Below are positions 13,535-55,708 of a DNA stretch of 64,000 nucleotides, in pieces. The stretch comes from Escherichia phage vB_ESM-pEJ01. The notes under the pieces were generated by a model. The model was given only the letters and a program-made list of their open reading frames with translations. It did not search any database and had not been told where the DNA came from. The position numbers and the translations under genes are program-made. Location of the stretch: sequence record OP114734.1; one strand, written 5' to 3'. Within the stretch, counting starts at the first letter, position 1, and each line of letters starts with the position of its first letter.

Positions 13535-14311
13535 TTATTCTATGTCAACAAATTTCCAATTTGGAAAGTCTGGACTCATACAACGACGCCGAACGGTTCC
13601 GCGCTCGTTTCCTAGTACCTTAGATACTTCCGATACAGATTTATAAATCACACCATCAACAAATACAGCCTTTCGGTCTTTCCTGTTTTGGTTTTTGCTC
13701 TTTTCTCTTCTGGCTTCTACGTTATCCGAATCATTCCATTGTCTCTTTGCTGTCTCTCTGGAAGATATTGCCTTTTGTTCTTTAACAATATCTTTAACGA
13801 GTTGTTCTTGTCCTGTTATCTTCGCCCACACATTAACAGACTGGATAGCATTAGCCTCACTCATTCCCCAGCGTTTGCCGGATATATTCTTACGACGCAC
13901 GCGTAGAAATTCGTTAAAGACTTCTTCGCATTGGTGCATATAATCACGAAATCCATATTTCTTAGCCCATGCCTCTTTAATTGCATCAGACATATTTTCG
14001 GCAATACGTCTACGCATCCATGCATACTCCTTATTATTGCGACCGTGACTGGTCATGCACATCATACGCGAAGCCATAATAAGACCCACATGTTTAGGAT
14101 ACATTTTAGCTAAAAGTAGATGTGCTGTAAAGTGTTCCTCTGGAGTCAATGGAACGAGATTTTCGTGGTCATCGGTTCCACCCATACAACGTGGTTTAAC
14201 GTGATGGATCTCTACATATCCGGTCGGCTTCTCGCGGGTTCTTGCTCGTTCAATCAATTTTTTGTAATGTGCTTTGTAGTTCATGTGATCCTCCATATGA
14301 AAAAGGGGCAT
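13535..14311 (-). CDS. HNH homing endonuclease
   Basis: HNH motif GYVEIHHVKPRCMGGTDDHENLVPLTPEEH; basic C-terminal putative DNA-binding region; inserted between gene-40-position ORF and uvsX. Confidence 0.75.
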   Translation of the reverse strand: MPLFHMEDHMNYKAHYKKLIERARTREKPTGYVEIHHVKPRCMGGTDDHENLVPLTPEEHFTAHLLLAKMYPKHVGLIMASRMMCMTSHGRNNKEYAWMRRRIAENMSDAIKEAWAKKYGFRDYMHQCEEVFNEFLRVRRKNISGKRWGMSEANAIQSVNVWAKITGQEQLVKDIVKEQKAISSRETAKRQWNDSDNVEARREKSKNQNRKDRKAVFVDGVIYKSVSEVSKVLGNERGTVRRRCMSPDFPNWKFVDIE

Positions 14312-14335
14312 AACGCCCCTTAACTGTCACTGATA

Positions 14336-15406
14336 TTATGCTAACATATCTTCGATTTCTTTGTCAACTGCTTCGTCGCTGATAATCTGGCCTAACTGAT
14401 AATGATCGTTGATTGCTTTCTGGAAGTGCTCATTGGTCAGTAGAGGTTTCCAGAACTCCACACTGTCAGTGTCTTTTGCACGCACCTTGCGGTCTTCAAC
14501 TTCCATTTCTCCGGTCTCCTCGTTAAGAATAGCGCGAGAATACCAGCCATTTGATGGTTTAACTACCCAACCCAACTCCACCGCAAGATCCAGCAATCCA
14601 GAATAAGGATCGATGCCACCACTAAACGTTACGCTAATCGGGAACTTTGATCCCTCTCTAACCGTTCGTGATTTCTCGGCTTTCAGAATAAAGTCATAAC
14701 CCGTAACCTCGGTTCCTTCTTTCTGCTGGCGACGCCCAATGATGAAAATTTCATTGGAAGAGTAAACGCCACCAGTACCGCCACCCATGATATCTTTCGG
14801 GTAAAGATCCATTGAGCTATAAACGTGGTTAATCGCAATGCACGGAATATCATTCATGGTCAGATACGGCGTAATCATACGGAACAAGCCTTTAAGTGCT
14901 TTAGCTCTCGTCATATCCTGTGCCGATTTCTCATTAATCGCGTCTTCAACTTCTTTTTTACTTGCCAAGTTACCGATTGAGTCAATAAAGATGATCACTT
15001 TATCTTCACGGGTAATTTGCTCAAGCTGGTTCATGATCTCAAATTTAAGTTCTTCGATGTTCTTGATTGGAACGTGCACCACTCGATCAGGATCTACACC
15101 CATAGATGACAGATACGCGGAAGTAATGCCAAATTCTGAATCAAAGAACAAACAAGCCGCATCTGGATTCTGTTTCATGTATGCACTAACACAAGTTAAT
15201 CCCATGTTTGATTTAAAGTGCTTAGACGGACCAGCAAAGAAAATCAGACCAGATTGAAAGCCTTTTTTAAGATCACCAGAAAACGCAATATTCAGCATCG
15301 GGATCTTAGTGCGAGTATTTGTTTTTTCGTTAAAGAAGCTGGATTTAGACAGTACCGCAGTAGTTTTCAGGGTAGAGTTCTTTTTCAGTTTTTCCAGTAC
15401 AGACAT
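14336..15406 (-). CDS. uvsX: UvsX recombinase (RecA-like)
   Basis: KIPMLNIAFSG, GPSKHFKSN (Walker A), FIDSIGNLASKKE match remembered T4 UvsX. Confidence 0.93.
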   Translation of the reverse strand: MSVLEKLKKNSTLKTTAVLSKSSFFNEKTNTRTKIPMLNIAFSGDLKKGFQSGLIFFAGPSKHFKSNMGLTCVSAYMKQNPDAACLFFDSEFGITSAYLSSMGVDPDRVVHVPIKNIEELKFEIMNQLEQITREDKVIIFIDSIGNLASKKEVEDAINEKSAQDMTRAKALKGLFRMITPYLTMNDIPCIAINHVYSSMDLYPKDIMGGGTGGVYSSNEIFIIGRRQQKEGTEVTGYDFILKAEKSRTVREGSKFPISVTFSGGIDPYSGLLDLAVELGWVVKPSNGWYSRAILNEETGEMEVEDRKVRAKDTDSVEFWKPLLTNEHFQKAINDHYQLGQIISDEAVDKEIEDMLA

Positions 15407-15417
15407 TATTAATACCT

Positions 15418-15645
15418 CTATTCAGTTAATCCGTAATACTTTAATTGCTTCATTGTTATTCGATCTTTGTAGTGCTCTTGAATTAACTTTTTCATCACAT
15501 CAACATCGATCGTCACAAATACTTCGTTGCTGTGATTTCCGTGAACTTTCTTGAAATGCTCTATGCCTTCCTCACGTTCACGTTTAATCTTTTCAATGTC
15601 TCTCATAATATATTTCTCACATTGGCGGGTATCGTAACCCAACAC
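15418..15645 (-). CDS. hypothetical protein (75 aa)
   Basis: Only ORF between uvsX and gene 43. Confidence 0.5.
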   Translation of the reverse strand: MLGYDTRQCEKYIMRDIEKIKREREEGIEHFKKVHGNHSNEVFVTIDVDVMKKLIQEHYKDRITMKQLKYYGLTE

Positions 15646-15667
15646 CCGCCATTATACACACTTTATC

Positions 15668-18346
15668 TTAAATGTCAAACAGGTCCGTAAGCGATGCCAC
15701 CTTTTCATATTGCAGCTTTGCAGCCGTGGTAATGTTCTCCAGTGGTTTGACGAAAGTCTTATTAAACAACAAAGGCCAGTCCAACCACTTCAACACCTCT
15801 GATTCAATTTCTGGAGGAATACGAGTACCAGACAACCAACCAAAACAGATTTCTCCAAACGGATTTCGATCTTTAAGCGGTACAATCATAACCTTCTCGC
15901 CTTCACGAATCGGATCTAGTCCGAATTTTCGAGCATTACGATTATAACACAATACACTCTTAACCGCATACGGACAACCCTTAATCGGATACCCGTTTGA
16001 ATCGCTGTATTTCTGTAGGTTGTTTGCAGATGATACCGCAGCAACATCAAGATAGTCAAGTTTTCTAAATTCTTGCTCAAAAATACCGTAGTATTCCTGC
16101 AATGACTCTTCACCTTCCTGCAACATACGGCGAATACATTCTTTCAGTGATTTCTGACATGCTTTAGGGGTGGAGCTACGTTGCGTTTCCAAGCCCATGA
16201 TTTTTAGCTTAGGTTCAGCAAAGCGCGTTCCTTCCATATCCCAAACATTAAGAGCATAACGCTTTTTGCCAGTCCAGAATCCACCGATACCCGCAGATTT
16301 CAACGGAGGACCAGCAATTGCCTCACGGTCCATAAACATCAAGTGCTCATAGTTGTTCATGTACTCGCATAACTCGCGATATCCCTTGTCGATAATAGGT
16401 TCCATTCGATGTTTACCGAAATTATCAAGGAAGTCAACAAGTTTTTCGGTATCGTCGAAACGATCTTCCCCGCCAACCTTATCAACAACATTGTTAACCA
16501 GCACATAAACGGAGTCAGTATCACAATAACGAACATATGCAAAATCGGTTGTTCCGCAAAGCTCGTTTAAGTATTCGTTAATCTTACGCTCAATCCACTG
16601 AATTGCAAGCTGACCGAACAGTGTGATCGCACTAGCGTTACGGAGATCATAAAAACGGAATTTAGGATTCCCCAACGCACCATAAAGTGAGTTGATCAAA
16701 ACTTTTCGAGAAAGCTGGTTTGTATTGCACAAGATCGACTCGTCTTTACATTCTTCCAGCAATTTCTCTAAGGTATCTTTGCTTAATTCAGAAAGCATCG
16801 ATTTAAACGCTTCATCGAAGTCGTGACGCACTTCAACGCTATAGCTAATGGTTCCCCCATAAACATGATTTTCATCGTGTAGAATCGCTTTACATAGTTC
16901 AGCATTGCGATCACATGCCAACATCATGTTTTTGTACTGCTTACGCTGATCGAATACCTTTTTAATCTCAATCGGTACGATACCATGAATATCTTTTCTA
17001 TACATCCATCCGTTAGGCGAGCAAGAATACTCATCACTCGGACGTGGTGCAGTTTTATTGATATACTCGTGCATCGGTGCAGCATCAAAAGATCCAGCGA
17101 TTGTTTCAGGAGAAATATTAACCTGTCGAATAATAGATGGGTACAGACTTGTTAAGTCAAAGCTCATCATCCAACGGTAAGCATTTGGCACAGGTTCTTT
17201 TACAAATGCGCCTGGATACGTCTGCTTAGGCTGTATCTTATTTTCCGGTACTACTTTACCCTCAGCTTTCAGAGATCCGAAGATAATAGCATCCCATACT
17301 TTCATCGGGTTATAAACATGGTTAAATTTAATCTTTGCATAGAAACATAGACTATACACAAGATCGATAAATCCACGCTTTTTATCAATCGCCAGCACAC
17401 GATCAACGTCGCCGATGTTATAATCGATGTAAAGTTGATGGTTGTCATCACGCAATTTCTTTAACGGACCATCATAATCAACCTTACCGATTCCTGTCTC
17501 ATATTCAGCAACATAATCTAACGCATATGTTGGTTGAGTCGTAAAGCTAAATTTCTTGTACAGGTCAATATAATCAAGGCTTTCGATCCCCATGATCGTA
17601 AATGCTTCACGCTCGTTGCCAAAATCATCCTGTGAGATTCTGGATTTAATCTTACCGCACGGGCTTAGACGGTTAGCGGTTCTACTTCCGAACTTATTAC
17701 TGATACGTTTAATGATATATGGAATATCGAATGTTTCTGTGTTCCAGCCAGTGAAACCAACGGGTCGGTTTTCCTCAAAGAATCGGATGTATTCTAACAG
17801 CAATTCATCTTCTGTGTCATAGACGTTATAAACAACGCGCTCTACAATATCAGGTCGAAGAATAGACTTGCTTGCTTCCCAGATTTCACCGTTTTTTCCT
17901 TTCAAATCAAATACAAAGAAACGATCATGTACGGAATCATAATGCGTAATTGCATCGATAGGATATTTCGCTTCTTCTGGTTTAGGAAATTCTGGGGCAG
18001 TGACCTCAATATCAACCCATGCTACACGGATTTTATTTCGGTCATATCGAATCTCGCCTTTATACGTATCAGACAGATAGGAGATGATAAAATCATCCAT
18101 CCCTAGTGCCTCCTGCCCCATTTCTCCCATCTTTTTACGCCATTTGTTGGCCTCGTTCATAGATGGGAATTTTTTAGCAATGCAAGGCTTGCCATAGATA
18201 TCTTTATAATTCGTAACCATACCAGGCGCGGCATGATGAAATAATGTTGGCGTATATTCAACGTAACGCTCTTGTTCTTGTCCAGCATCATCAATATAAC
18301 GCTCGTAGATCTTATCACCTACTCGCTCACATGACAGAAAATACAT
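15668..18346 (-). CDS. 43: DNA polymerase gp43 (family B)
   Basis: Colinear with remembered T4 gp43 (YGKPC, SFDLTSLYPSIIRQVNISPET, YCDTDS); start set to ATG at 18344-18346 with AAGGAG SD (track starts at upstream GTG 18376). Confidence 0.95.
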   Translation of the reverse strand: MYFLSCERVGDKIYERYIDDAGQEQERYVEYTPTLFHHAAPGMVTNYKDIYGKPCIAKKFPSMNEANKWRKKMGEMGQEALGMDDFIISYLSDTYKGEIRYDRNKIRVAWVDIEVTAPEFPKPEEAKYPIDAITHYDSVHDRFFVFDLKGKNGEIWEASKSILRPDIVERVVYNVYDTEDELLLEYIRFFEENRPVGFTGWNTETFDIPYIIKRISNKFGSRTANRLSPCGKIKSRISQDDFGNEREAFTIMGIESLDYIDLYKKFSFTTQPTYALDYVAEYETGIGKVDYDGPLKKLRDDNHQLYIDYNIGDVDRVLAIDKKRGFIDLVYSLCFYAKIKFNHVYNPMKVWDAIIFGSLKAEGKVVPENKIQPKQTYPGAFVKEPVPNAYRWMMSFDLTSLYPSIIRQVNISPETIAGSFDAAPMHEYINKTAPRPSDEYSCSPNGWMYRKDIHGIVPIEIKKVFDQRKQYKNMMLACDRNAELCKAILHDENHVYGGTISYSVEVRHDFDEAFKSMLSELSKDTLEKLLEECKDESILCNTNQLSRKVLINSLYGALGNPKFRFYDLRNASAITLFGQLAIQWIERKINEYLNELCGTTDFAYVRYCDTDSVYVLVNNVVDKVGGEDRFDDTEKLVDFLDNFGKHRMEPIIDKGYRELCEYMNNYEHLMFMDREAIAGPPLKSAGIGGFWTGKKRYALNVWDMEGTRFAEPKLKIMGLETQRSSTPKACQKSLKECIRRMLQEGEESLQEYYGIFEQEFRKLDYLDVAAVSSANNLQKYSDSNGYPIKGCPYAVKSVLCYNRNARKFGLDPIREGEKVMIVPLKDRNPFGEICFGWLSGTRIPPEIESEVLKWLDWPLLFNKTFVKPLENITTAAKLQYEKVASLTDLFDI

Positions 18347-18428
18347 AATATAAACTCCTTCATTTACGAAAGACACTCATTATAGGGGAATCGACCTAGT
18401 TTGTCAATACCCCTATCCCATCAGTATC

Positions 18429-18791: not shown

Positions 18792-18792
18792 T

Positions 18793-21097: not shown

Positions 21098-21127
21098 CAA
21101 ATCACCTTTATCATGTTAATCAATTAA

Positions 21128-21526
21128 TTACGGGTTTACTGCGTGTTCGTTACGAATCTTGAGCATTTTGTTTTGAAAGTTTTCCGCAGCTTGCTCATCA
21201 ATAGCATGAGTATACTTAAATCCAATGTATGCTGTCAAGTATTGTTGCAGAGCATAGACAGTAACAGGATTCTTTGCGGTCTTCTTGCCTTCGAGATATA
21301 TCAGATCACCACGAACATCAAACGCAAGTTTACGACGAATCACATTATCAACAAACTCATCAACAACAAAATGCCAAATGTTGCTATCGGTTCCAATATC
21401 AAAATTAATCACAAATCCTTGTTTGACATAATCAAACGGTATCGGGAATAGTTTATAGTCAAGTTCGATAAACATTAATTGTTCTTTTAGGCTCATACGT
21501 TTCATTCTATCACTTCCCATCAGCAA
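21128..21526 (-). CDS. hypothetical protein at the T4 rpbA position
   Basis: 132-aa ORF immediately downstream of gene 45 as rpbA in T4; identity not verified. Confidence 0.5.
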   Translation of the reverse strand: MLMGSDRMKRMSLKEQLMFIELDYKLFPIPFDYVKQGFVINFDIGTDSNIWHFVVDEFVDNVIRRKLAFDVRGDLIYLEGKKTAKNPVTVYALQQYLTAYIGFKYTHAIDEQAAENFQNKMLKIRNEHAVNP

Positions 21527-25224: not shown

Positions 25225-26250
25225 CTAACTTTTTGCGTTATTTACTTCGGCTAAAAGTTCATCAGAAATACGCTTGACCGCCGCAAGTTCTTCCGGTTCT
25301 AGGTTTTGTTCTTCCAGATATTCATAGACCATCTGAATAGTGCTTTTAACTTCAATAACACCTGTTTCCTGTGATGCGCTACTCTCCAGTTTATGGACCA
25401 CCTTTAGCTTGTGTACAACGGCCTCTAACGCGCTTTCTAACTTAGTTAACCCATTATCAGCGACCGTTGCGATAAGACGCACACTAAGCCCTTTAAAGCG
25501 TTCGACATCGATTTTATCGTCTGACGGGTAAGTGATACGCACATGATAAGTTTTGTCATTCTGAATAAACTCTTTTTTGTGTGTATCGGTATCGAATACC
25601 CAAAAACCACGCGGATCGTTTTCGTCACCCGCCGTTAGTGTGTATGGTGTACCAATATACGTTACGTTACCGCCATCACTGATAGTATGAAAGTGACCCG
25701 AAAACACTTCACGGTATTTCTTGAGGAAGTCCGCGCTATAACCTTCGGATTTTAGCCCTTTATAGAAATAGTAACCGGACAATTCCCAATGGCCTACACA
25801 ATATTCGCTGAATGAGTTTTGAATAAACTCTAAAATCTCTGATTTATTGTCATCACAAAACCACGGGAACAGATCAAATGATACACCATCAAAGGTAACT
25901 GTTTCCGGTTTATCGATAACCTTAATGCAATCATACTGGCTTAACACTTCACGCGGTGCGTTAGGCTGGATCTTGTTTCGTTTAAACATATCATGATTCC
26001 CGACCGTGGTATAACAAGTAATATCAGCCTCTTCCAGTAACGGGATGACCTTAGTACGGTTAAATTTCATGGTTTCATGGGTAATTGCTTTTCGGCAATC
26101 AAACCAATCCCCTGTTTGAATCCATGTCTTAATATTATGCTCTTTGGAGTATTCAACCGCTTTCTTGATGGTATCAAGAATATACTCATGCACCCACGGA
26201 TCATCGCCACCGATACCAGTATGCAGATCACCTAAAAGCAAAATTTTCAT
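25225..26250 (-). CDS. 47: recombination endonuclease subunit gp47 (Mre11/SbcD-like)
   Basis: MKILLLGDLHTG, GNHDM, GHFH phosphoesterase motifs; GAGGAAG SD. Confidence 0.92.
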   Translation of the reverse strand: MKILLLGDLHTGIGGDDPWVHEYILDTIKKAVEYSKEHNIKTWIQTGDWFDCRKAITHETMKFNRTKVIPLLEEADITCYTTVGNHDMFKRNKIQPNAPREVLSQYDCIKVIDKPETVTFDGVSFDLFPWFCDDNKSEILEFIQNSFSEYCVGHWELSGYYFYKGLKSEGYSADFLKKYREVFSGHFHTISDGGNVTYIGTPYTLTAGDENDPRGFWVFDTDTHKKEFIQNDKTYHVRITYPSDDKIDVERFKGLSVRLIATVADNGLTKLESALEAVVHKLKVVHKLESSASQETGVIEVKSTIQMVYEYLEEQNLEPEELAAVKRISDELLAEVNNAKS

Positions 26251-26302
26251 AGTCTCTTCCTCTCTTCGTTTTCGATGCTCTCACTATATCACAGAAAAAT
26301 AA

Positions 26303-33614: not shown

Positions 33615-33751
33615 AGTTCCTCTAATAAAAAACTTTCCTTTAAATTAAAACTAGCCAATGTGCTAGCGTGCATTTTAACAACAACACCATCGCCAATTTC
33701 CAGTTTACGAAGTTTAACTTCTTTGCTCAGTACACAAAACATCATCATCAT
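33557..33751 (-). CDS. small hypothetical protein (64 aa)
   Basis: ATG run at 33740-33751 with GAGAGGA SD directly downstream of promoter 33781-33808; overlaps next ORF (possible frameshift or alternative start). Confidence 0.35.
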   Translation of the reverse strand: MMMMFCVLSKEVKLRKLEIGDGVVVKMHASTLASFNLKESFLLEELWLISAGVKAKEHKSVAFA

Positions 33752-33780
33752 GTTGTCCTCTCGTTGTTTTCGATGTGAGC

Positions 33781-33808
33781 ATTATACATTAGCTAATCAT
33801 GTTGTCAA
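33781..33808 (-). promoter_or_regulatory. sigma70-type early promoter (-35 TTGACA rc 33803-33808; -10 TATAAT rc 33781-33786; 16-nt spacer)
   Basis: Perfect consensus hexamers on minus strand. Confidence 0.5.
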
Positions 33809-33824
33809 CACCCCAAAACGAAAA

Positions 33825-33846
33825 AGCCGACCCTTTCGGATCGGCT
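33825..33846 (-). terminator. rho-independent terminator 3' of nrdD
   Basis: rc hairpin agccgatccgaaagggtcggct followed by UUUUCGUUUU. Confidence 0.5.
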
Positions 33847-39240: not shown

Positions 39241-39996
39241 TTATACCTCATTCAGTTCTATATCAAGTTCATTTTCAATAATATAGGCATTAACTGCCCG
39301 TGCCGCATCATCTTCTGTGTCAAATCTTCCTATATACACACCGCGAACTTTAGCACCGTAATTACCTTGTTTTGGTACTTTGTAAACGTATCTATGACGG
39401 GAACTTGCTGCTTTTTGGAGCTTCTTGCCATATTCAGACTTTGCATATTCTATATCATCAATCTCGTTTATACAAGACCTATCACCAAAATGTTTCAACG
39501 CTGCAAGATTATATGCATAAGCCGCACCGATCTCGGAGGGAAAATATCCTAAATGTATAGACTTCCCATCCAACATTATTGCACCAGTCCAATAACCTTT
39601 ATTCTTATTAAACGACACACCTTTATACTTCGAATATGTTTTGCATTTGGTCTTGCTCATATTCATATTATTTTGTTTGCTTGTCGTCTCTCTAAGGTTT
39701 TCAATGCGGCTATTATAACGATCTCGGTCTTTATGATCTATATACTTAGGACAATGACCATGAAACATATGATAGATAACACGGTGCATACGTTCGTATC
39801 GCTCGCCAGTCCATACAATACGATACCCATCGGGGGTATCACTTCCAGCTAATCCGTTTATAACACCTTTTCGGTGCGGGTGAATCTTCCACCTAAGAAA
39901 ACCATCATCATAATAAAACCGTGAATGATATAAATCATACAAACGTTTATCTTCTGGAGTCTTGTGTATAACCTCATATTTTAACATTGGTGACAT
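39241..39996 (-). CDS. HNH homing endonuclease with two AP2-type DNA-binding domains
   Basis: HNH HRVIYHMFHGHCPKYIDHKDRDRYNSRIENLRETTSKQN; AP2-like YKGVSFNKNKGYWTGAIM...AAYAYN and YGAKVRGVYIGRFDTEDDAARAVN. Confidence 0.8.
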   Translation of the reverse strand: MSPMLKYEVIHKTPEDKRLYDLYHSRFYYDDGFLRWKIHPHRKGVINGLAGSDTPDGYRIVWTGERYERMHRVIYHMFHGHCPKYIDHKDRDRYNSRIENLRETTSKQNNMNMSKTKCKTYSKYKGVSFNKNKGYWTGAIMLDGKSIHLGYFPSEIGAAYAYNLAALKHFGDRSCINEIDDIEYAKSEYGKKLQKAASSRHRYVYKVPKQGNYGAKVRGVYIGRFDTEDDAARAVNAYIIENELDIELNEV

Positions 39997-40789
39997 AAAC
40001 TTCCTTAGTATCGGATTTTTTACCCCCGCTACGGTCTAAACAATATGTTTTATCCAGTTCAACAACAGAAATATCATTACGTTCGATAAAATCAAGCAAA
40101 TGGTTGTTAACTTTCCCTTTGTGGTGAGTAACATTGCTTAATCCAAACTTAGTACCGCTAGACATTAATGATTCTATCCACATGTAGAATTTAATCTCTT
40201 CTTCTTCACTCCAGAACTTATTATATTCTGCCGACGTGATCCAATATGGCGGATCAAGGAAAACGAAATCACCTGGCAAGATCTCGATCTCATCATAACG
40301 ACCAGACGTAAAACTGATTCGACCGTCTTTGTTTTCTTCCTTAAAATTCAGGACACGCTCTACCGCGTTTTCGTTAAAAGTCCGTCGGCCAAAATTAGCA
40401 TTAAATTCGCCCTTCCGGTTGTGGCGGTTAATGTTGCTAAAACTATGCTGAATCAACACAAACAGCGATAACGGATCTGGATTCTCGTTATACTTCTTAC
40501 GGAATGTCATGTAAGCGTCTTTATCTTCGCGAGACAAACCATTTTCGGCAATAATACGCTTGATCGTAGAAACCGGATCAGGACACTCGTCAATCGCTTT
40601 GTACGCGTCAATTAAGCGGTGATCATAGTCATTAGCCAGCACATCCCCTTCGACGTACAGAGACACGCTCAAGCCGCCACAGAAGGCATCAACAAAGCGG
40701 TTATAGTGCTTAGGGAAATACTTACTAACACTTGGCAATAACTTTTCCTTATTCCCAGTATAGGGAATTAAACCTAATGCTTTCTTCAT
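39974..40789 (-). CDS. dam: DNA adenine methyltransferase (Dam)
   Basis: FVDAFCGGLSVSL (SAM binding) and FVFLDPPYWIT (DPPY catalytic motif); resembles remembered T4 Dam. Confidence 0.88.
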   Translation of the reverse strand: MKKALGLIPYTGNKEKLLPSVSKYFPKHYNRFVDAFCGGLSVSLYVEGDVLANDYDHRLIDAYKAIDECPDPVSTIKRIIAENGLSREDKDAYMTFRKKYNENPDPLSLFVLIQHSFSNINRHNRKGEFNANFGRRTFNENAVERVLNFKEENKDGRISFTSGRYDEIEILPGDFVFLDPPYWITSAEYNKFWSEEEEIKFYMWIESLMSSGTKFGLSNVTHHKGKVNNHLLDFIERNDISVVELDKTYCLDRSGGKKSDTKEVYVTNVKI

Positions 40790-42417: not shown

Positions 42418-42840
42418 TTAAAAATCTTCTTCCGGTTTATATCGACCGTCATCGACTGGTTTTGGACTGAATCCTTTATGCGTGCGCGGCTTCGCTTCCG
42501 GTTTACCAGCAATCATCAAACCAAAACATTTCATTCCCTTATAACACATAACAATATCAACCACGGTCCACGTTATAGGCCATACGATTGCAGCAATACA
42601 AAATGCTCCTGTATCGACCTCTTTGGTGTCCTTGTCGAATCTGGCGTACAAGCAGAATACTAGATACGAGATCATTGCACCAGTAGTCCAGATATAAAGC
42701 ACATTAACAATATCTTGTGTTGTCACATTATCCTCCTTACATGTCTTGCAGTGCATAAAAGCATTTTTCTTCATAGTCATAGAAAATGTCAAAGTATGCT
42801 TTTTCCACATACTCGCCATTAATCCAAGCGGCAGTAACAA
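42418..42840 (-). CDS. membrane protein (140 aa)
   Basis: Hydrophobic segments (YIWTTGAMISYLVFCLY; FCIAAIVWPITWTVVDIVM); start uncertain. Confidence 0.45.
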   Translation of the reverse strand: MLLPLGLMASMWKKHTLTFSMTMKKNAFMHCKTCKEDNVTTQDIVNVLYIWTTGAMISYLVFCLYARFDKDTKEVDTGAFCIAAIVWPITWTVVDIVMCYKGMKCFGLMIAGKPEAKPRTHKGFSPKPVDDGRYKPEEDF

Positions 42841-46038: not shown

Positions 46039-46260
46039 TTAGATGATCTCTGCTTCACCATTCAGGAAGAAAGACCATGTTTTGTTAGGATAGCGAAGCG
46101 CCCATGATTCAGCGGTTTTAACACCAGCTTCGAACAATTGACGGCTGGTTACTTTCGCCATACCATCTTCAATGTCAACGTTTTCAATAATCATCGGGTA
46201 CTTAGCGCCACGCATGAAACCGAAGCCAGCGGAAGATTTGATAATTTTAACAGTTGCCAT
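46039..46260 (-). CDS. hypothetical protein (about 73 aa)
   Basis: Track ORF 46039..46332; ATG at 46260 (MATVKIIK...) has AGGAGAATCAAAATG initiation region and promoter upstream. Confidence 0.5.
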   Translation of the reverse strand: MATVKIIKSSAGFGFMRGAKYPMIIENVDIEDGMAKVTSRQLFEAGVKTAESWALRYPNKTWSFFLNGEAEII

Positions 46261-46300
46261 TTTGATTCTCCTAGAAAGTGTATCTCGTTTCGATGGGTAT

Positions 46301-46329
46301 ATTATGCAATAACACCGGATCGCTGTCAA
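46301..46329 (-). promoter_or_regulatory. sigma70-type early promoter (-35 TTGACA rc 46324-46329; -10 CATAAT; 17-nt spacer)
   Basis: Part of recurring promoter-leader cassette. Confidence 0.45.
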
Positions 46330-46349
46330 CACTTTCTAAGAAAAAATTT

Positions 46350-46634
46350 TTAAACTAATCGAATATAGCCCAGAATTTCAGCACCTTTAGCCAAACCTAA
46401 AACTTCCCATTCAAGGTCGCCGTATTCGTAATTTGCAACCATCAACTGACCATTTTTCATGCAGCATTCATGAGAGAAAATTTGCCCCGCATAAACCACG
46501 ATAGTAATAAACTTTCCTGATTCTGGAGGTATGGAAGACAAAGCGACCATATGACCATTCAGCTTAGTCACCAGTGATGGAACAATAAAATTCGGGCTTA
46601 CCTGAATACCTTTAAATTCGTTTGTGTCTTTCAT
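46350..46634 (-). CDS. hypothetical protein (94 aa)
   Basis: ORF track. Confidence 0.45.
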   Translation of the reverse strand: MKDTNEFKGIQVSPNFIVPSLVTKLNGHMVALSSIPPESGKFITIVVYAGQIFSHECCMKNGQLMVANYEYGDLEWEVLGLAKGAEILGYIRLV

Positions 46635-47316: not shown

Positions 47317-47515
47317 TCTTCACGGTCTCCATAATTGTTTTGTAAGCCAGCTTAAGATGATCACCGAAAAACTTTGCAGTGTTACCCTTCGGATCGCGGA
47401 GCATGGTTTCTACGATCTCATCGGCAGTAACAATTTCTCCTTTCTTTGCTGCATGTTCTACCATATACTTCAAAGTTTCTTCGGAGGCAAGTGCTGCGGC
47501 CACTGGATTAATCAT
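47306..47515 (-). CDS. hypothetical protein (69 aa)
   Basis: ORF track; AGGAGAATCAAAATG initiation region. Confidence 0.5.
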   Translation of the reverse strand: MINPVAAALASEETLKYMVEHAAKKGEIVTADEIVETMLRDPKGNTAKFFGDHLKLAYKTIMETVKNAK

Positions 47516-47542
47516 TTTGATTCTCCTTTGTTGTCGATGTGT

Positions 47543-47571
47543 GCATTATGCTATACCCTATTCCGGTTGTC
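47543..47571 (-). promoter_or_regulatory. sigma70-type early promoter (-35 TTGACA rc 47566-47571; -10 CATAAT)
   Basis: 17-nt spacer; recurring cassette. Confidence 0.45.
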
Positions 47572-47588
47572 AACACCTAAAAACGAAA

Positions 47589-47608
47589 AAGCCACCCTTT
47601 CGGATGGC
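47589..47608 (-). terminator. rho-independent terminator
   Basis: rc hairpin agccatccgaaagggtggct followed by UUUUCGUUUU. Confidence 0.5.
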
Positions 47609-47842
47609 TTTTGATTATATTTTATTCACGTCCATTTGTATAGTAGTGTTTGAATCGACCTTTGCTAAACTAGTTAAACATAGTAACCAATTCACCATCC
47701 CTTTCCAATGATAACCCTTCCTCGTCTTAGACGGGTCTTCCGATTCGGCAGTAATTGAACACGCGAAAGTATGAGGAAGCCAAATAGTTGTGTTAATGCT
47801 AGTATTCTTTTACTTCTGGTATGCATCCCACGGTGACTAACA

Positions 47843-49723: not shown

Positions 49724-49926
49724 TTACATTTAGGGCAATGCGGTTCTTTAATATAATACCCGTCTGTCTTTGGAACACTAACAGGAGCGGTTTTTATATT
49801 GTATTCGGTGAAACAACGAAAACAAGTTACGTTTTCTACAGACTGACGTTTCACCCAATAACCGGAATAGAGGTCATTTTTATTTGTCATATTCCACCAC
49901 CACAATGTTAATGTCTGGAGTAGCAA
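49696..49926 (-). CDS. zinc-ribbon small protein (76 aa)
   Basis: CFRCF...CPKCKC. Confidence 0.45.
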   Translation of the reverse strand: MLLQTLTLWWWNMTNKNDLYSGYWVKRQSVENVTCFRCFTEYNIKTAPVSVPKTDGYYIKEPHCPKCKCRLYWSHL

Positions 49927-50335: not shown

Positions 50336-50350
50336 AATATAAACCTCTCA

Positions 50351-50710: not shown

Positions 50711-50717
50711 ATATTCC

Positions 50718-51308: not shown

Positions 51309-51393
51309 TAATTTCTCCTGTTTGGCTTAACTTTCTGATTCCATAATATAGCCCTATCACCAGAAAGTCAAGCATTAATTTAACCAATTTCCA

Positions 51394-51816
51394 TTATTGG
51401 TCTACCTTCAAAACAACCGCCGACATTTTACCCGCCAGTCGTTTTGGATTCTCTATAATCATTCGGCAGCATAGACCGTGATATGGCTTACCCTCTTCGA
51501 TTAGATCTACTGTCATCCCGATCCACATGTTACCATCAGTAATTTCTAATCGATTAGGTCGGTCTTCCATTTTCAGGAAGTCGAAGATCTCCGGCAAACG
51601 AGTTTCTATCTTATTGAATAGTTCCATTGTCTTATGTTCATCGATATGACGATCGGTTAGACGGTCGATCATATGCGGACTAAAGCGAATGAAAATATAC
51701 TCACCGTAACCATCATTCAAGCACTTTTCTTTGATCTGCGCATTGGTTTTGCGCATTTCGGTTTCGAAGAATCTACGCAGCTTACTACGGCGAACATGTA
51801 CGTTAATTGTTTCCAT
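51394..51816 (-). CDS. regB: RegB endoribonuclease
   Basis: INVHVRRSKLRRFFE...NRLEITDGNMWIGMTV...CRMII resembles remembered T4 RegB; start at ATG 51816 (AAGGA SD). Confidence 0.8.
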   Translation of the reverse strand: METINVHVRRSKLRRFFETEMRKTNAQIKEKCLNDGYGEYIFIRFSPHMIDRLTDRHIDEHKTMELFNKIETRLPEIFDFLKMEDRPNRLEITDGNMWIGMTVDLIEEGKPYHGLCCRMIIENPKRLAGKMSAVVLKVDQ

Positions 51817-51820
51817 TTTA

Positions 51821-52156
51821 TTATCCTTTCTTAAACAAATTGCGAAGCCAGTATACAAACGGGATTTCTTTAAACTTGAATTTCTCTATAGTTAATTCTT
51901 TAGTAGCAAGATGAATACCATAAGCATCATGTGTCACGATATGCCATTTTCTATAGTCCAAATGTGAACAACCGTCTGGATCTAGGTTAATAAGAGTTTC
52001 TCGCTCACTAGGATTATTTTTCCACAATTTTGTAATAGGATCGCACATAATTCGACCTAGCGTACCATGAATAATCTCACAACGGTAAAGTTTTCCAGCA
52101 GTGAGATAGGCGCACCCGTCATAGTCGGTATAAACAAACACTTCTTTAACACTCAT
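51821..52156 (-). CDS. small paralog family protein (member 1 of 3)
   Basis: DPDGCSHLDYRKWHIV motif shared with next two ORFs; start at ATG 52156 (AAGGAG SD, promoter upstream). Confidence 0.5.
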   Translation of the reverse strand: MSVKEVFVYTDYDGCAYLTAGKLYRCEIIHGTLGRIMCDPITKLWKNNPSERETLINLDPDGCSHLDYRKWHIVTHDAYGIHLATKELTIEKFKFKEIPFVYWLRNLFKKG

Positions 52157-52184
52157 TTTAATACTCCTTTGTTTCGATGGGGGT

Positions 52185-52213
52185 ATATTACTACCCCCGT
52201 TTTGTTGTGTCAA
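52185..52213 (-). promoter_or_regulatory. sigma70-type early promoter (-35 TTGACA rc 52208-52213; -10 TAATAT; IR gggggta/taccccc)
   Basis: 17-nt spacer; IR 52180-52199. Confidence 0.45.
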
Positions 52214-52474
52214 CTACTTTTTCAAGATTTTTTTAATTGCGTTCCAAAGACCTTTATTCTCAGGTTGTTTTGGTTCTTCGATTAGTGTCCATGTTCGACC
52301 GTCTAAGTGTGCACAATTTTTAAGACAAATAAAAATCTGGTGTCCCTTATCATCACGGATATAACCACTATTCGCAAATCTTTCATGTGGTGTATATTCA
52401 TACAGTGTATTTGGTGTAATATACTTGCGGTTACTATAAGGTGTCATCACATACATCATGGTACTAACTCCCAT
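52214..52474 (-). CDS. small paralog family protein (member 2 of 3)
   Basis: YEYTPHERFANSGYIRDDKGHQIFICLKNCAHLDGRTWTL; start uncertain. Confidence 0.45.
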   Translation of the reverse strand: MGVSTMMYVMTPYSNRKYITPNTLYEYTPHERFANSGYIRDDKGHQIFICLKNCAHLDGRTWTLIEEPKQPENKGLWNAIKKILKK

Positions 52475-52650
52475 TTATCACCGCGAAGATGAGAACATCC
52501 ACCATCAAGAAGTATCGTAATACGATAACCTATATCATCTTTGATGTAACCGATTGTCGGTGGATTTTCGTCGTCTCGTGTCGGGGTAAAATCATACATC
52601 TTTCCGGGCGTAATATCTTGTCCTTTATTGCTATTGGTATAAACTTTCAT
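52456..52650 (-). CDS. small paralog family protein (member 3 of 3)
   Basis: YDFTPTRDDENPPTIGYIKDDIGYRITILLDGGCSHLRGDKWEL. Confidence 0.45.
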   Translation of the reverse strand: MKVYTNSNKGQDITPGKMYDFTPTRDDENPPTIGYIKDDIGYRITILLDGGCSHLRGDKWELVP

Positions 52651-52671
52651 TTTCTTAATCTCCTATATTAA

Positions 52672-53370
52672 CTAACCACGGGTATAGTGTTCCAGAACAA
52701 CTGTCAGATGAATATATTCTAATAGATCTTTCCAAAAGTCAACATCTGGTTCTTCCGGCATACCGTTTTTCTTTGCCTCTTCACGCGCGAGTTTAACACG
52801 TTCGTAGAGATCTTTCAATTCTTCCCGCACATTATCAAAGGTTCTTTCTCCTAACTTACACGCTAAAATAGAAGAACGTCGCGCGAGCGGGAATTGTAGA
52901 TCACCTGTCTGATAGATTTCAAGTAGCTGATAACCAACACGCAGAGCATGAGAAAGATCTTTCCAGTTACTGAAATACTTTTCAGATTTGGCTACCTGTT
53001 TCTTGAGATAACCAGACAAACCCCACATCCCAACATGATAGAATTTATCGCGATGTGTTCGGATGTATTCCCATTCTCTGGAGGATTCAATCAACATGTT
53101 ACTAGGCGCGTGCACCATGTCAATAGCGCCGATATCACCTTTACATGCCAGATTGATAAACCGTTTTAGACTAAACATATTAACGTCAATATCGTCTTTG
53201 GTGTTCTTGATACCTTGACCGCTAGTGCTTTGGTCATAGTGTTCTTTCATCGATCCTAAGATAATTTCTTTCGCAGTCGGAACAAAGATACCACGATAAT
53301 CTTTATCTGAATTTTCAGTATCAAGGCCGTATAAGTGAGATCCGAAGACCATTTTAACCATTGTATGCAT
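52672..53370 (-). CDS. minimal nucleotidyltransferase (Pol-beta superfamily fold)
   Basis: hG[GS]-x(n)-DhD signature FGSHLYGLDTENSDKDY near N-terminus; 232 aa with helical C-terminal half. Confidence 0.5.
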   Translation of the reverse strand: MHTMVKMVFGSHLYGLDTENSDKDYRGIFVPTAKEIILGSMKEHYDQSTSGQGIKNTKDDIDVNMFSLKRFINLACKGDIGAIDMVHAPSNMLIESSREWEYIRTHRDKFYHVGMWGLSGYLKKQVAKSEKYFSNWKDLSHALRVGYQLLEIYQTGDLQFPLARRSSILACKLGERTFDNVREELKDLYERVKLAREEAKKNGMPEEPDVDFWKDLLEYIHLTVVLEHYTRG

Positions 53371-53388
53371 AATTAAACCCTCAGTTGA

Positions 53389-53982
53389 TTAAACGTATTC
53401 AGCAACAACATTATGTTTAAAATTACCGCTCCTTTTTGGATTTGGATTTTTCAATCGACTATGTATTAAATTTTTGTTGTATCCGGTTGCTTTAGACGCT
53501 TCGCCAATACTTTGATAAACAACACCATTAACACGAATCGGACGAGACTTATTAAACAGTTTATTCAATCCGGCATCATATGCATGGTTTTGGTTTTCTT
53601 GCCTCGTTGCGATCTCAAGATTCCAAACACAATTACAAGATTTTACCCCACTTTTATGATTAATTTCAAGACCTTCACAATCACCTATAAAGTGTTCAGC
53701 AACTAGTCTATGAATATAGCGATATTTCTTACTTTCCCCATCATGCAAGCATACATTATAATAACCATCACCAGCGCGTTTAGGTCGGAGTAGTTTACCT
53801 TTAACACGTTTTATAGTAGGGAACTCACCAAATTGATTTCTCTGGATAAACGGAATCTCGCGGTCTAATGAACGGATTCGACCATAGTTAGACACTTGAT
53901 AAAAACTTTCATATCCTTTAATTGGCTTCCATATCTCAGGGATTTCTACACCATCAATAACAACAAGTTTAAATTCTTCCAT
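53389..53982 (-). CDS. HNH homing endonuclease (NUMOD4-like N-terminus plus HNH)
   Basis: IKGYESFYQVSNYGRIRS (NUMOD4-like); YIHRLVAEHFIG...INHKSGVKSCNCVWNLEIATRQENQNH (HNH). Confidence 0.75.
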   Translation of the reverse strand: MEEFKLVVIDGVEIPEIWKPIKGYESFYQVSNYGRIRSLDREIPFIQRNQFGEFPTIKRVKGKLLRPKRAGDGYYNVCLHDGESKKYRYIHRLVAEHFIGDCEGLEINHKSGVKSCNCVWNLEIATRQENQNHAYDAGLNKLFNKSRPIRVNGVVYQSIGEASKATGYNKNLIHSRLKNPNPKRSGNFKHNVVAEYV

Positions 53983-54001
53983 ATTTCACCTCATAAAAAT
54001 A

Positions 54002-54025
54002 AAGCCAACCCTTTCGGATTGGCTT
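54002..54025 (-). terminator. rho-independent terminator 3' of GrcA-like gene
   Basis: rc hairpin aagccaatccgaaagggttggctt followed by UAUUUUUAU. Confidence 0.45.
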
Positions 54026-54030
54026 GTTGA

Positions 54031-54444
54031 TTACATAGATTCCGTAAAGGTACGGGTGATAATATCAAGTTGTTGTTCGCGTGTCAAGGCGTTGAAGCGG
54101 GTAGCATAACCACTGATTCGAATTGTAAGCTGCGGGTACTTCTCAGGATGTTCAACCGCATCAAGAAGAGTCTCCCGACGCAGTACATTCGCGTTGAGAT
54201 GATGACCCGCGTTACTATTTACCCCGTTATCAATTGCTAAAGGACGGAAGCTAGTTGTGTGCAGTTCCAGCGAATCGACGTCTTCTGCGGTGATCACATG
54301 ATCTTCTGCGAAAGTTTTACTAACAATTACTTTAGCGCCGATCAGTGCTTTCGGTTCGGATACCAGAATCATAGGCGCGAAATGTCCACCGATAATAGTA
54401 CCTTTATGCTCACCTTTCATGATTTGAATTGCTTTAAATTCCAT
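54031..54444 (-). CDS. GrcA/YfiD-like autonomous glycyl radical cofactor protein
   Basis: C-terminal [58 protein letters not shown] closely matches remembered E. coli GrcA incl. glycyl-radical RxSGY motif. Confidence 0.7.
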
Positions 54445-54579
54445 AATTCACCTCTTATAGATCAGGACGTTCGTCATTAATTTTACCAACCAAAACCCCA
54501 TAGAGTTTATCAGGTTGGACTTTACGATTCTTATTGATTGTAGCACGGAATCGACGAGCCACGCTATCTTTATTTTTCA

Positions 54580-55071
54580 TTAGTTGATACCTAAGCCAAT
54601 GAAAATAGGTTGGTCTTCTACATTACCCATCCCAACACTAAGTCGATTCAATTCTAAAAACTGCAATACGCTGTCAGTAAATCCGCGCATGGTAGTATCT
54701 AGGATAAAAATTGTTTTGTCAAGACTACGACCTCGCCATGTGATCGGATTCAGGAAAGTTCGGATAGACGTACAATCTACATTTGAAATATTTACATTTT
54801 CACCGCGACCGCGATCTCGGATCGTTTTGGCATGTTCTCGCGTCGTTGAAACGATAAAGACACTATAGCCCTTTCGCGTATAATGGTCATATAACTTGAT
54901 TGTAGCGTCTGTATGCCCTGTCTGACGGCCTAAATTGATTGAGACAATGGAATCTAGGTCATCAGCAAAATTGCGTCGCTTACGGCGTTCTATGATGCCA
55001 TTTACGGCAGAAATACACGCAGCATAAATCAAATCTTTACTTTCTAATTCTAAATCAATGTCAATATTCAT
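54580..55071 (-). CDS. hypothetical protein (163 aa)
   Basis: ORF track. Confidence 0.5.
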   Translation of the reverse strand: MNIDIDLELESKDLIYAACISAVNGIIERRKRRNFADDLDSIVSINLGRQTGHTDATIKLYDHYTRKGYSVFIVSTTREHAKTIRDRGRGENVNISNVDCTSIRTFLNPITWRGRSLDKTIFILDTTMRGFTDSVLQFLELNRLSVGMGNVEDQPIFIGLGIN

Positions 55072-55133
55072 GGTAAAGTCTCCAGTGAACGGGGAGAGAT
55101 CCTTAGATTGTCTCCCCGTTGATGGTTAATATT

Positions 55134-55708
55134 TTATTTTGGATCTGGGAAATTCAATAGAGCATATTCTCCATAAAATTTCCTAGCTGCATTATCATAA
55201 GCGATTGCAGCTTCGATTTCTGTGTCATATTGTCCAAGAACATGTCTTTGTAGGTTGACCATTATACTAGCTCTCCATTTCTTACGCAAATCCTTCCTGT
55301 TACACTTACTAACACCCTTATACACACTAGAAAACTTTTAGACTTCTTCTTTCTATTATGTTGATTTTGCGCGTCGGTTGCCTCCATAAGATTTGGAGGA
55401 TTGTTATTAGCAGGATTACCGTCAATATGATCAATTAATCTAACTTGCGTCCCATGTTCTAGAAACCAAACAACCCTATGCACGAATAGATGAACTCTAG
55501 GAAGACCGTCATCTCTACTATGCCAAAATCTAAGATGACCATCTTTATTTGTTCTGACTTTAACTAAATCGCCGTGTTTATATCTACTCCCTAATGGTCG
55601 TCCTTTGATAGCTTTACTATCGACTCTATAATATAAGATACCCTCTATATGAGCATATCTAAGTTTTATCTCGTTTTGTAGGGATTCATCCCAATATTTA
55701 AAAGCCAT
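55134..55708 (-). pseudogene. HNH-AP2 homing endonuclease split by a frameshift at an A-run (or sequencing error)
   Basis: 55262..55708 carries HNH (LFVHRVVWFLEHGTQVRLIDHIDGNPANNNPPNL); AP2 domain (YKGVSKCNRKD...AAIAYDNAARKFYGEYA) continues in -1 frame as ORF 55134..55325; shift near aaaag at about 55318-55326. Confidence 0.55.

Follow-up and report, generated by a model that had tools for sequence, protein, structure and literature searches.

Profile and homology searches confirm that five open reading frames in a 64,000-nucleotide stretch of the Escherichia phage vB_ESM-pEJ01 genome (OP114734.1; hereafter the window) are predicted free-standing HNH homing endonuclease genes (HEG1 to HEG5), one of which, HEG5, is frameshifted. 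The phage is a Krischvirus (an RB49-like coliphage) with ~97% identity to RB49, and an alignment of the whole window with RB49 contains no inserts longer than 150 bp other than these five genes. All five have previously been annotated at identical sites in sequenced relatives and are thus of a known kind in a known place. The genes are very probably Krischvirus free-standing HNH (His-Me finger) homing endonuclease genes that were gained by intronless homing, as suggested by their domains, their precise and polymorphic insertion sites, and the variant ends of the genes next to them. The features of the five loci are listed in Table 1.

Table 1. Predicted endonuclease genes and associated features of the window.
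Feature	Coordinates	Strand	Basis
HEG1, HNH_3 + AP2 endonuclease gene, 187 aa	1554..2117	-	Pfam, PHROG, junction
Variant 3' terminus of gene 39 (topoisomerase II large subunit), last ~28 nt, linked to HEG1	2119..2146	-	comparison with RB49
Sigma-70-type promoter TTGACA-17-TAAAAT at the 3' end of the HEG2 cassette, toward gene 40	13520..13548	-	sequence
HEG2, Mob-like HNH + C-terminal I-TevI-type helix-turn-helix, 249 aa from the ATG behind GGAGG	13535..14284	-	Pfam, PHROG, tblastn
Terminator-like hairpin 3' of uvsX	14303..14321	-	also in RB49
Divergent 3' half of uvsX	14336..14900	-	comparison with RB49, KFS-EC
HEG3, HNH_3 + AP2 + putative cryptic second AP2-like domain (about residues 197-246), 251 aa	39241..39996	-	Pfam, PDB, hhalign
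HEG3-linked divergent 3' end of dam	39974..40300	-	comparison with RB49
HEG4, NUMOD4 + HNH_3 + weak I-TevI-type HTH, 197 aa, I-HmuI homologue	53389..53982	-	Pfam, PDB
Terminator-like hairpin 3' of vs.6	54002..54025	-	also in RB49
HEG4-linked divergent 3' end of vs.6 (Gly_radical/GrcA-like)	54031..54290	-	comparison with RB49
HEG5, HNH_3 + AP2 endonuclease pseudogene	55134..55708	-	Pfam, comparison with KMB43, JSE
Remnant of the original endolysin 3' end (CCCAGATCCAAAATAA)	55134..55149	-	junction comparison
New hairpin carried by the HEG5 cassette	55723..55746	-	after the replaced endolysin end, ahead of the HEG5 ribosome-binding site
HEG5-linked replacement 3' end of the endolysin gene	55754..55845	-	comparison among genomes

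Domain composition of the five genes

The sequence-only reading of the window had listed five HNH genes within 64 kb, and Pfam, PHROG and PDB matches support this count; all five open reading frames are found on the minus strand where that reading had placed them, although its headline range (13535-55708) omits the first gene, at 1554. Its HNH, AP2 and NUMOD4 assignments are likewise borne out by Pfam, with the AP2 domains of HEG1 and HEG5 and the HNH domain of HEG2 scoring below the cut-offs. HNH_3 (PF13392) is recognized in HEG1 (E=6e-14), HEG3 (E=2e-13), HEG4 (E=2.5e-10) and HEG5 (E=2e-10, in 55262-55708), all four scoring 40.3-51.8 bits where the cut-off is 24.8. The residues corresponding to I-HmuI His75 and Asn96, which we take to be the catalytic histidine and the metal-binding asparagine of the beta-beta-alpha-Me site of that enzyme, are invariant in these four sequences, and HEG4 has an asparagine at the position of I-HmuI Asp74. 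HEG4 also matches NUMOD4 (E=2e-18) and the I-HmuI structure 1U3E (E=2.9e-12).

C-terminal to the HNH domain, HEG1, HEG3 and HEG5 are predicted to carry an AP2 domain (PF00847), which scores 35.6 bits in HEG3, above the cut-off of 33.3, and lies under this gathering score in HEG1 (25.7 bits, E=1.4e-5) and in HEG5 (25.2-27.7 bits, E=3e-6, in a separate frame at 55134-55325). HEG1 additionally matches PHROG 99 (E=5e-49), and both HEG1 and HEG5 are 42-46% identical over their full length to RB49p040, a published AP2-HNH protein whose gene is absent from the window. HEG3 matches the AP2 domains of WRI1 in the PDB (E=4.8e-10). No second AP2 domain is detected in the HEG3 C-terminus by Pfam or BLASTP, and a homologue search returns six proteins, none of which covers the C-terminal extension. 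Profile-profile comparison with hhalign gives a second AP2-like domain with a probability of 99.5% (E=1.5e-22), and the remote homologues found in a search of 1.84 billion representative proteins are multi-AP2 proteins. Together these results argue against a single AP2 domain, agree with the two that had been proposed for this gene, and suggest that the second is AP2-like and highly diverged.

HEG2 contains a classic HNH motif (EIHHV..GG..HENLV..H, also read as EIHHV..HENLV..EEH), which reaches 18.8 bits against the Pfam HNH cut-off of 21.4, and an I-TevI DNA-binding domain (I-TevI_DNA-bd) at 27.6 bits against a cut-off of 27. The protein matches PHROG 655 "homing endonuclease" (E=3e-49), and its N-terminal 44 aa, the only part aligned by tblastn, share 56% identity with the mobA region of T4 (E=1.4e-11); a PDB search yields only marginal motif matches to McrA and Cas8-HNH (E ~0.1-0.3). 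With its N-terminal HNH motif, separate C-terminal DNA-binding region and mob homology, HEG2 appears to belong to the Mob-like HNH class of T4. The longest open reading frame extends to 14311, which had been taken as the start of the gene; this position lies inside the terminator hairpin, and the ATG at 14284 behind GGAGG is the likelier start. The KFS-EC and Sf20 annotations are 750 nt in length.

The reading frames of HEG1, HEG3 and HEG4 are intact, and that of HEG5 is split by a 1-nt homopolymer deletion. Relative to KMB43 and JSE, in which the gene is intact (191 aa), one A has been lost at 55336-55339 (an A5 run reduced to A4) and an arginine has changed to methionine at 55386, which substantiates the frameshift already noted in this gene. 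Because the frame is broken, HEG5 cannot be active as written, and the deletion may be either real decay or a homopolymer sequencing error. Programmed frameshifting or transcriptional slippage at the A4 run appears unlikely, as the run is too short and is not part of a canonical slippery heptamer.

Insertion sites and variant ends of the neighboring genes

Occupancy of each site was counted over 58 Krischvirus records, which represent ~52 sequenced genomes. Each gene occurs in 4-13 of the 58 records (3-12 of the ~52 genomes), at the same junction each time, and the empty sites are precise in relatives without the gene; the presence/absence mapping that had been proposed as a check thus gives the pattern predicted for homing endonuclease genes. 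HEG1 is present in eight records (seven genomes), HEG2 in four (KFS-EC twice, Sf20 and JEP8), HEG3 in seven, HEG4 in eight and HEG5 in 13. All four combinations of presence and absence occur for pairs of sites, and no single relative among the 58 records holds more than two of the five genes. The closest copies are 98.8-99.9% identical in nucleotide sequence, flanks included, and are spread over five different genomes, the best match of each gene being in another phage (JSE, KFS-EC, ELT3, MIZ4 and KMB43). Copies in relatives, such as JSE EpJSE_00105, KFS-EC gp182, GEC-3S BN201_0063, the MIZ4 HNH endonuclease and the KMB43 homing endonuclease, share the insertion junctions of the window and are mostly labelled HNH or homing endonucleases. 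Unlike these relatives, the window joins all five genes, and its HEG5 has a private 1-nt deletion along with the arginine-to-methionine change. Overall, copy identity is 92.5-99.9% compared with ~97% for the backbone, so that the genes are not clearly better conserved and recent spread is not proven.

The conserved neighbors named from the sequence (topoisomerase gene 39, uvsX, dam/nrdC and the Gly_radical/GrcA-like vs.6) are all correct, and the genes are free-standing between them as described, except that HEG5 lies within the endolysin gene, at its 3' end, and is not strictly intergenic. HEG1 begins 1 nt past the stop codon of gene 39, and the TGA that ends HEG1 shares bases with the -35 TTGACA of the following promoter/stem-loop (PeSL). 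HEG3 overlaps dam by 23 nt at its start and ends 1 nt ahead of the nrdC ATG. HEG2 and HEG4 are inserted directly behind the terminator-like hairpins of uvsX and vs.6, respectively, and the promoter at the 3' end of the HEG2 cassette is missing from the empty site of RB49. HEG5 entered within the endolysin gene, where the remnant of the original end, CCCAGATCCAAAATAA, now provides its last five codons and stop. The cassettes are minimal, and none has its own promoter; HEG1 and HEG3 are coupled to the upstream gene and the other three genes lie behind a terminator-like hairpin, from which low expression is predicted. No T4-type late promoters (TATAAATA) are found near the five genes.

A comparison with RB49 reveals a one-sided divergence at each gene, in that the 3' end of the upstream gene is variant whereas the downstream genes retain 98-100% identity. 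Across the 64 kb, conservation is lowest in three 200-bp segments, which are located just upstream of HEG3, HEG4 and HEG2. At the end of gene 39, 11 of 33 nt and four amino acids are changed, compared with 98-100% identity in the remainder of the gene. The 3' end of dam is 69-86% identical over ~300 bp, and that of vs.6 is 63-77% identical, with the glycyl-radical motif lying within the tract. In the endolysin gene, the replacement end shows 100% identity among the HEG5-bearing window, KMB43 and JSE and is 53-72% identical to the HEG5-free RB49 and GEC-3S. In uvsX, the 3' half is 64-91% identical per 90-nt bin, compared with 96-100% in the 5' half.

Linkage of the flanking allele to the endonuclease gene is observed for endolysin, for vs.6 and, in KFS-EC, for uvsX, where the 3' allele is identical to that of the window. 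JSE carries a different NUMOD4-HNH gene at the HEG4 site, so that two different endonuclease genes occupy the vs.6/nrdC.11 site, each with its own vs.6 3' allele; 011D4, Whisky and phiS have an insert there of comparable size. The 3' half of uvsX also varies between the HEG2-free RB49 and PHB13 (73-89%), and part of the divergence there is therefore not tied to HEG2. A distant blastn search for a donor lineage of HEG2 and the uvsX tract finds none beyond the four HEG2-bearing records, the next best tract matches being 80% (Makalu_002) and then ~66%.

Probable intronless homing and alternative explanations

One-sided divergent tracts are expected where intronless homing co-converts the flank and the target allele resists cleavage, and the free-standing endonucleases of T4 cut hundreds of bp from their own genes and co-convert the flanks (PMC2988022). 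The five genes were probably gained singly, in mixed infections with related phages. Each predicted enzyme pairs a small HNH nuclease with DNA-binding modules (AP2, NUMOD4 or I-TevI-type HTH) and would nick or cut a relative without the gene in the conserved gene upstream of the empty site, that is, in gene 39, uvsX, dam, vs.6 or endolysin, these putative target sites being placed from divergence alone. The phage recombination machinery would then repair the break from the endonuclease-bearing genome and copy both the endonuclease gene and the diverged, presumably cleavage-resistant 3' end, which would confer immunity on the variant allele and super-Mendelian inheritance on the gene. HEG5 may later have lost its function through the 1-nt deletion, unless this deletion is a sequencing error.

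The same genes could instead be passive cargo, gained and lost by ordinary homologous recombination or PeSL shuffling with no nuclease driving their spread. Krischvirus genomes are mosaic in any case, PeSL-mediated insertion and deletion of single open reading frames is documented in RB49/phi1 (PMC2839356), and in the window a PeSL-like promoter and stem-loop directly follows HEG1, and HEG2, HEG4 and HEG5 each have a hairpin directly upstream. However, no insert has a PeSL on both sides, the junction on the upstream side being a stop codon or coding sequence, and a search for flanking PeSL pairs or repeats finds only short imperfect repeats from the displaced 3' ends at HEG3 and HEG5. PeSL exchange also does not predict that 28-600 bp of a neighboring coding 3' end are swapped in strict linkage with the insert, and the large indels of the window are all endonuclease genes, with no ORFan among them; we consider passive spread improbable.

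Still less probable is that the genes have been domesticated and would now benefit the phage, as weapons against related phages in the same cell (marker exclusion), as AP2-type DNA-binding regulators or as HNH accessory factors. T4 endonucleases are known to cause marker exclusion (PMC2988022), AP2 domains genuinely bind DNA in a sequence-specific manner, and the HEG2 cassette gives gene 40 a predicted promoter; against this, each gene is missing from 45-54 of the 58 records, HEG5 is decaying, no such gene lies near the terminase genes, and exclusion is a by-product of homing rather than an alternative to it. An assembly chimera of a mixed Krischvirus population, with the HEG5 frameshift as a homopolymer error, would account for the limit of two genes in other records, the best matches in different phages and a sole defect in an A run. 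Such mosaicism is nevertheless normal for the genus, the junctions are all clean and colinear with RB49 across 64 kb, and between the anchors at 1154 and 56108 the window has a syntenic span of 54,954 bp, shorter than those of JK32 (57,068) and JSE (55,316), which makes this the most remote of the three explanations. Intronless homing thus remains the preferred reading.

Relation to known endonucleases and significance

The AP2-bearing genes resemble the AP2-HNH homing endonucleases of T4-related phages (RB49 ORF040c and members in RB43, RB16 and JSE; Magnani et al. 2004, as cited in PMC1524935 and PMC2993671) in having an N-terminal HNH_3 and a C-terminal AP2 domain, and differ from them in their insertion sites and in the extra diverged AP2-like domain of HEG3. 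The view that AP2-HNH enzymes are comparatively rare does not hold for RB49-type phages, for which they have been described since 2004-2010, with one gene reported in RB49, three in RB43, six in RB16 and two in JSE (PMC2993671 Table 5; PMC1524935). Similarly, the supposedly high density, one gene per 12.8 kb, is no higher than that of T4 (15 in 169 kb, PMC2988022) but is at the rich end for Krischvirus.

HEG4 aligns with the nicking enzyme I-HmuI of Bacillus phage SPO1 (PDB 1U3E) in the N-terminal NUMOD4-like strand motif and the HNH core, whereas the I-HmuI gene resides in a group I intron and the genes of the window are free-standing. In T4, mobA lies directly 3' of gene 39 and targets it, SegA targets uvsX, and mobD abuts nrdC.11 (PMC2988022 Table 1). 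HEG1 occupies the mobA position, HEG2 adjoins uvsX, and HEG4 adjoins nrdC.11; SegA, however, is a GIY-YIG enzyme encoded on the opposite side of uvsX from HEG2. HEG1 and HEG4, unlike the T4 genes at the matching positions, are not Mob homologues, which suggests convergent use of the same conserved genes. Vibrio phage ICP1 gp115-gp116 resembles HEG5 in that an HNH open reading frame is followed by a separate AP2 one, read as a frameshift-inactivated homing endonuclease gene (Barth et al. 2023, PMC10448857), and in both phages nuclease genes lie at the edges of divergent sequence; the ICP1 pair differs in belonging to the IPA-HNH subfamily, which the HNH_3 model misses, and to another phage lineage.

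For annotation, all five can be labelled genes for free-standing HNH homing endonucleases, with HEG5 marked as a pseudogene, and the unusual 3' termini of gene 39, uvsX, dam, vs.6 and endolysin can be treated as endonuclease-linked alleles rather than errors. The finding of five such genes raises no new question in itself; the linked-allele pattern predicts the region that each enzyme may cut and could be used in work on AP2-HNH specificity. A bolder reading, which we offer tentatively and with some doubt, is that the phage may be an unusually loaded multi-drive donor, in which four intact HNH endonucleases would target the 3' ends of the topoisomerase, UvsX, Dam and vs.6 genes, the linked variants would be immunity alleles, the rival vs.6/nrdC.11 endonucleases would carry distinct ones, and HEG5 would have entered endolysin with a substitute C-terminus, borrowing the resident stop. 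If so, the Krischvirus population would constitute a natural allelic series for the target specificity of AP2-HNH and NUMOD4-HNH enzymes.

Domains and families of the endonuclease genes

The five free-standing HNH homing endonuclease genes (HEG1-HEG5) listed in the sequence-only reading all exist as it described them. The positions equivalent to His75 and Asn96 of I-HmuI are invariant across the four HNH_3 proteins, the former being the catalytic histidine, and HEG4 carries Asn in place of I-HmuI Asp74. By sequence comparison, the genes fall into three families: HNH-AP2, NUMOD4-HNH and Mob-like. HEG1, HEG5 and the HNH-AP2 gene of the reference phage RB49 (ORF040, RB49p040) are paralogues with 42-46% identity; HEG3 also belongs with HNH-AP2 but is more distantly related. 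HEG4 is 28% identical to JSE gene 00101, both being NUMOD4-HNH proteins. The Mob-like gene is HEG2, which over its first 44 residues shares 56% identity with the T4 mobA region (E=1.4e-11).

Positions, domains and upstream flanks of HEG1-HEG5 (flank identity read in 100-bp bins against RB49)
Gene	Position	Strand	Insertion relative to RB49	Domain evidence	3' end of preceding gene against RB49
HEG1	1554-2117	minus	1558-2146	HNH_3 51.8 bits; AP2 E=1.4e-5, below gathering score (Pfam)	gene 39: only last ~28 nt; 11/33 positions differ
HEG2	13535-14311	minus	13508-14294	HNH motif, Pfam weak (18.8 vs 21.4 bits); I-TevI-type DNA-binding domain 27.6 vs 27; PHROG 655 'homing endonuclease' E=3e-49	uvsX: 73-88%, ~600 bp
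HEG3	39241-39996	minus	39254-39983	HNH_3; AP2 35.6 bits, above gathering score; PDB match to plant WRI1 AP2 domains	dam: 69-86%, ~300 bp
HEG4	53389-53982	minus	53393-53990	NUMOD4 E=2e-18; HNH_3; I-HmuI (1U3E) match E=2.9e-12	vs.6: 73-83%, ~300 bp
HEG5	55134-55708	minus	55150-55792	HNH_3 in ORF 55262-55708; AP2 in second frame 55134-55325	endolysin: 81-90%, plus 39 unalignable nt

The claim that HEG3 contains two AP2 domains first seemed wrong, since residues 171-251 have no Pfam match and the protein has no internal repeat by BLASTP, which suggested a single AP2 domain. An exhaustive phmmer search with this segment returns 95 proteins, the majority of them matched in several places; Pfam AP2 domains occur in seven of the ten best matches and coincide with the matched stretch in two of the proteins. 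Additionally, the profile of these matches aligns with that of the first AP2 domain at an hhalign probability of 99.5% (E=1.5e-22). These results overturn the single-domain reading, and the claim stands. The frameshift noted in HEG5 is likewise borne out by alignment with KMB43 and JSE, in which the gene is intact (576 nt): one A missing from an A5 run (55336-55339) is its sole cause, and HEG5 also has one R-to-M substitution, in the NLREAT motif.

Insertions, junctions and flanks relative to RB49

The long ORFs of the window are all on the minus strand (G+C ~40%), and megablast places it in the genus Krischvirus, the RB49-like T4-type coliphages, with 58 records matching at 94-99% and none identical. 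It covers the early/replication region, from rIIA-proximal genes to gene 3, and is 97.0% identical to RB49 (NC_005066.1) across 60.5 kb of alignment. The insertions longer than 150 bp are exactly HEG1-HEG5, with no others. Their downstream sides are 97-100% identical to RB49, whereas identity falls sharply on the upstream side of all five, in the 3' end of the preceding gene, which alters the encoded C-termini. The three least conserved 200-bp windows in the whole 64 kb adjoin HEG3, HEG4 and HEG2. RB49p040, which lies between a-gt.4 and gene 47, is absent from the window (junction 26247-26251), and divergence at this empty site is also one-sided: the 5' end of gene 47 (26050-26246) is 80-87% identical to RB49 over 200 bp, and the a-gt.4 side 98-100%.

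All five inserts are compact and lack a promoter of their own. HEG1 starts 1 nt past the gene 39 stop and ends in a TGA that shares bases with the -35 TTGACA of the promoter/stem-loop ahead of the next gene. HEG2 follows the uvsX terminator-like hairpin with its own GGAGG, and its probable start is 14284, the one chosen in the KFS-EC and Sf20 annotations; a promoter facing gene 40 (TTGACA-17-TAAAAT) at the 3' end of the cassette overlaps its stop codon. The start of HEG3 overlaps the final 23 nt of dam, its end is 1 nt ahead of the nrdC ATG, and an imperfect 11-nt repeat, TGAGGT(T)ATA(A)C, is present at both junctions. HEG4 comes after the vs.6 hairpin, and its stop codon is supplied by the resident sequence. 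HEG5 is inserted within the endolysin gene; its ORF closes with the 16 nt that end the endolysin gene in RB49 (CCCAGATCCAAAATAA), which encode a PDPK tail absent from the paralogues HEG1 and RB49p040. In the window, the 3' end of the endolysin gene has been substituted, and a new hairpin comes after it.

Several smaller features were also observed. The longest ORF downstream of HEG1 (1196-1531) has its ATG within the promoter stem-loop; a start 12 codons later, as annotated for RB49p005, is more likely. Segments of ~100 nt at 33747-33846, 46255-46350, 47511-47609, 58672-58776 and 59651-59751 are 76-81% identical to non-syntenic RB49 positions and are probably dispersed PeSL (promoter/stem-loop) cassettes, as in RB49 and phi1. 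At 5184-5302, ~119 nt have no collinear RB49 counterpart, and the alignments on either side overlap by 58 nt when placed on RB49, a sign of a small duplication or replacement within the group of short ORFs that separates dexA from dda. Patches near 42500, 59100-59300, 21300-21500, 24400, 31700 and 43800 (all approximate) are only 62-80% identical to RB49, and none adjoins an endonuclease gene of the window; they may mark further recombination boundaries or the scars of elements since lost. Gene 43 (DNA polymerase) is annotated as two pieces with an extra insert in JEP8, G5211, ELT4, MIZ4/5 and G2494, the insert in MIZ4/5 including an HNH endonuclease; in the window it is uninterrupted (15668-18376).

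Distribution among Krischvirus genomes

Each gene with 400-bp flanks was searched against the 58 Krischvirus records, which include six GenBank/RefSeq duplicates. The presence/absence mapping proposed with the sequence-only reading reveals that every gene is polymorphic at a constant junction (HEG1 in 8 records, HEG2 in 4, HEG3 in 7, HEG4 in 8 and HEG5 in 13). The best copies come from five different genomes: JSE (HEG1, 99.3%), KFS-EC (HEG2, 99.9%), ELT3 (HEG3, 99.2%), MIZ4 (HEG4, 99.6%) and KMB43 (HEG5, 98.8%). All four presence/absence combinations are found for site pairs, and the most that any listed genome carries is two of the five, a tally biased to the window's own sites; the syntenic span (window 1154 to 56108) is 54,954 bp in the window, 55,316 in JSE and 57,068 in JK32. 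At the HEG4 site (vs.6/nrdC.11; window ~53390-53990), JSE has a different NUMOD4-HNH gene of ~500 bp (EpJSE_00101, 1783-2313 of the JSE locus sequence), and 011D4, Whisky and phiS have an insert known by its size alone, which is similar. As for the "high density" claimed, five genes in 64 kb are indeed present, and as a density this exceeds the published counts per genome for RB49 (2), phi1 (2) and JSE (7) (PMC2993671, Table 5), but it only equals that of T4, with 15 in 169 kb (PMC2988022).

The 3' variants of the preceding genes show linkage to the inserts. In the endolysin gene, identity over the final 90 nt is 100% among HEG5-bearing genomes (window, KMB43, JSE) and 98-100% between HEG5-free RB49 and GEC-3S, but only 53-72% across the two classes. 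The gene vs.6, encoding a Gly_radical/GrcA-like protein, has three 3' alleles, found with HEG4, with the JSE endonuclease and with the empty site. The uvsX allele of the window is identical to that of KFS-EC, which has HEG2; Sf20, which has HEG2, carries a different allele, as do the HEG-free RB49 and PHB13, each its own. At least four alleles of the final ~530 nt of uvsX (14336-14900) exist among Krischvirus genomes, 64-91% identical pairwise, with RB49 and PHB13 differing from each other; across the 5' half, all compared genomes are 93-100% identical. This 3' variability exceeds what HEG2 alone explains.

Mode of movement and precedents

The observation of five HNH genes is correct, well explained and already known. 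AP2-HNH genes of RB49 and relatives were reported in 2004-2010 (PMC1524935; PMC2993671), phage ICP1 provides a published precedent for a frameshifted HNH/AP2 pair (PMC10448857), and public records contain near-identical copies of all five genes at the corresponding loci, annotated as endonucleases in most cases. A search of full texts in the literature found no paper on homing endonuclease polymorphism in Krischvirus as such; as a phenomenon, such polymorphism is standard.

The main rival explanation for the movement of these genes is the shuffling of PeSL cassettes, as modelled for RB49 and phi1 (PMC2839356), but none of the five inserts lies between two such cassettes, and the replacement of coding 3' ends is not predicted by that model. 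The window is unlikely to be an assembly chimera, of which the sequence bears no sign. The pattern of inserts and flanks is the one that textbooks would lead one to expect from intronless homing by free-standing endonucleases (PMC2988022; compare PMC10448857). In this process, the endonuclease would cleave a conserved gene at some distance from its own, and repair of the double-strand break, templated by an endonuclease-bearing donor, would co-convert the flank along with the endonuclease gene, the donor's own target allele being resistant to cleavage. The insertion sites echo those of T4, in which mobA lies directly downstream of its target, gene 39, SegA targets uvsX, and mobD adjoins nrdC.11 (PMC2988022, Table 1). 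Given this footprint and the T4-like sites, the divergent tracts are taken as the predicted target regions of the enzymes.
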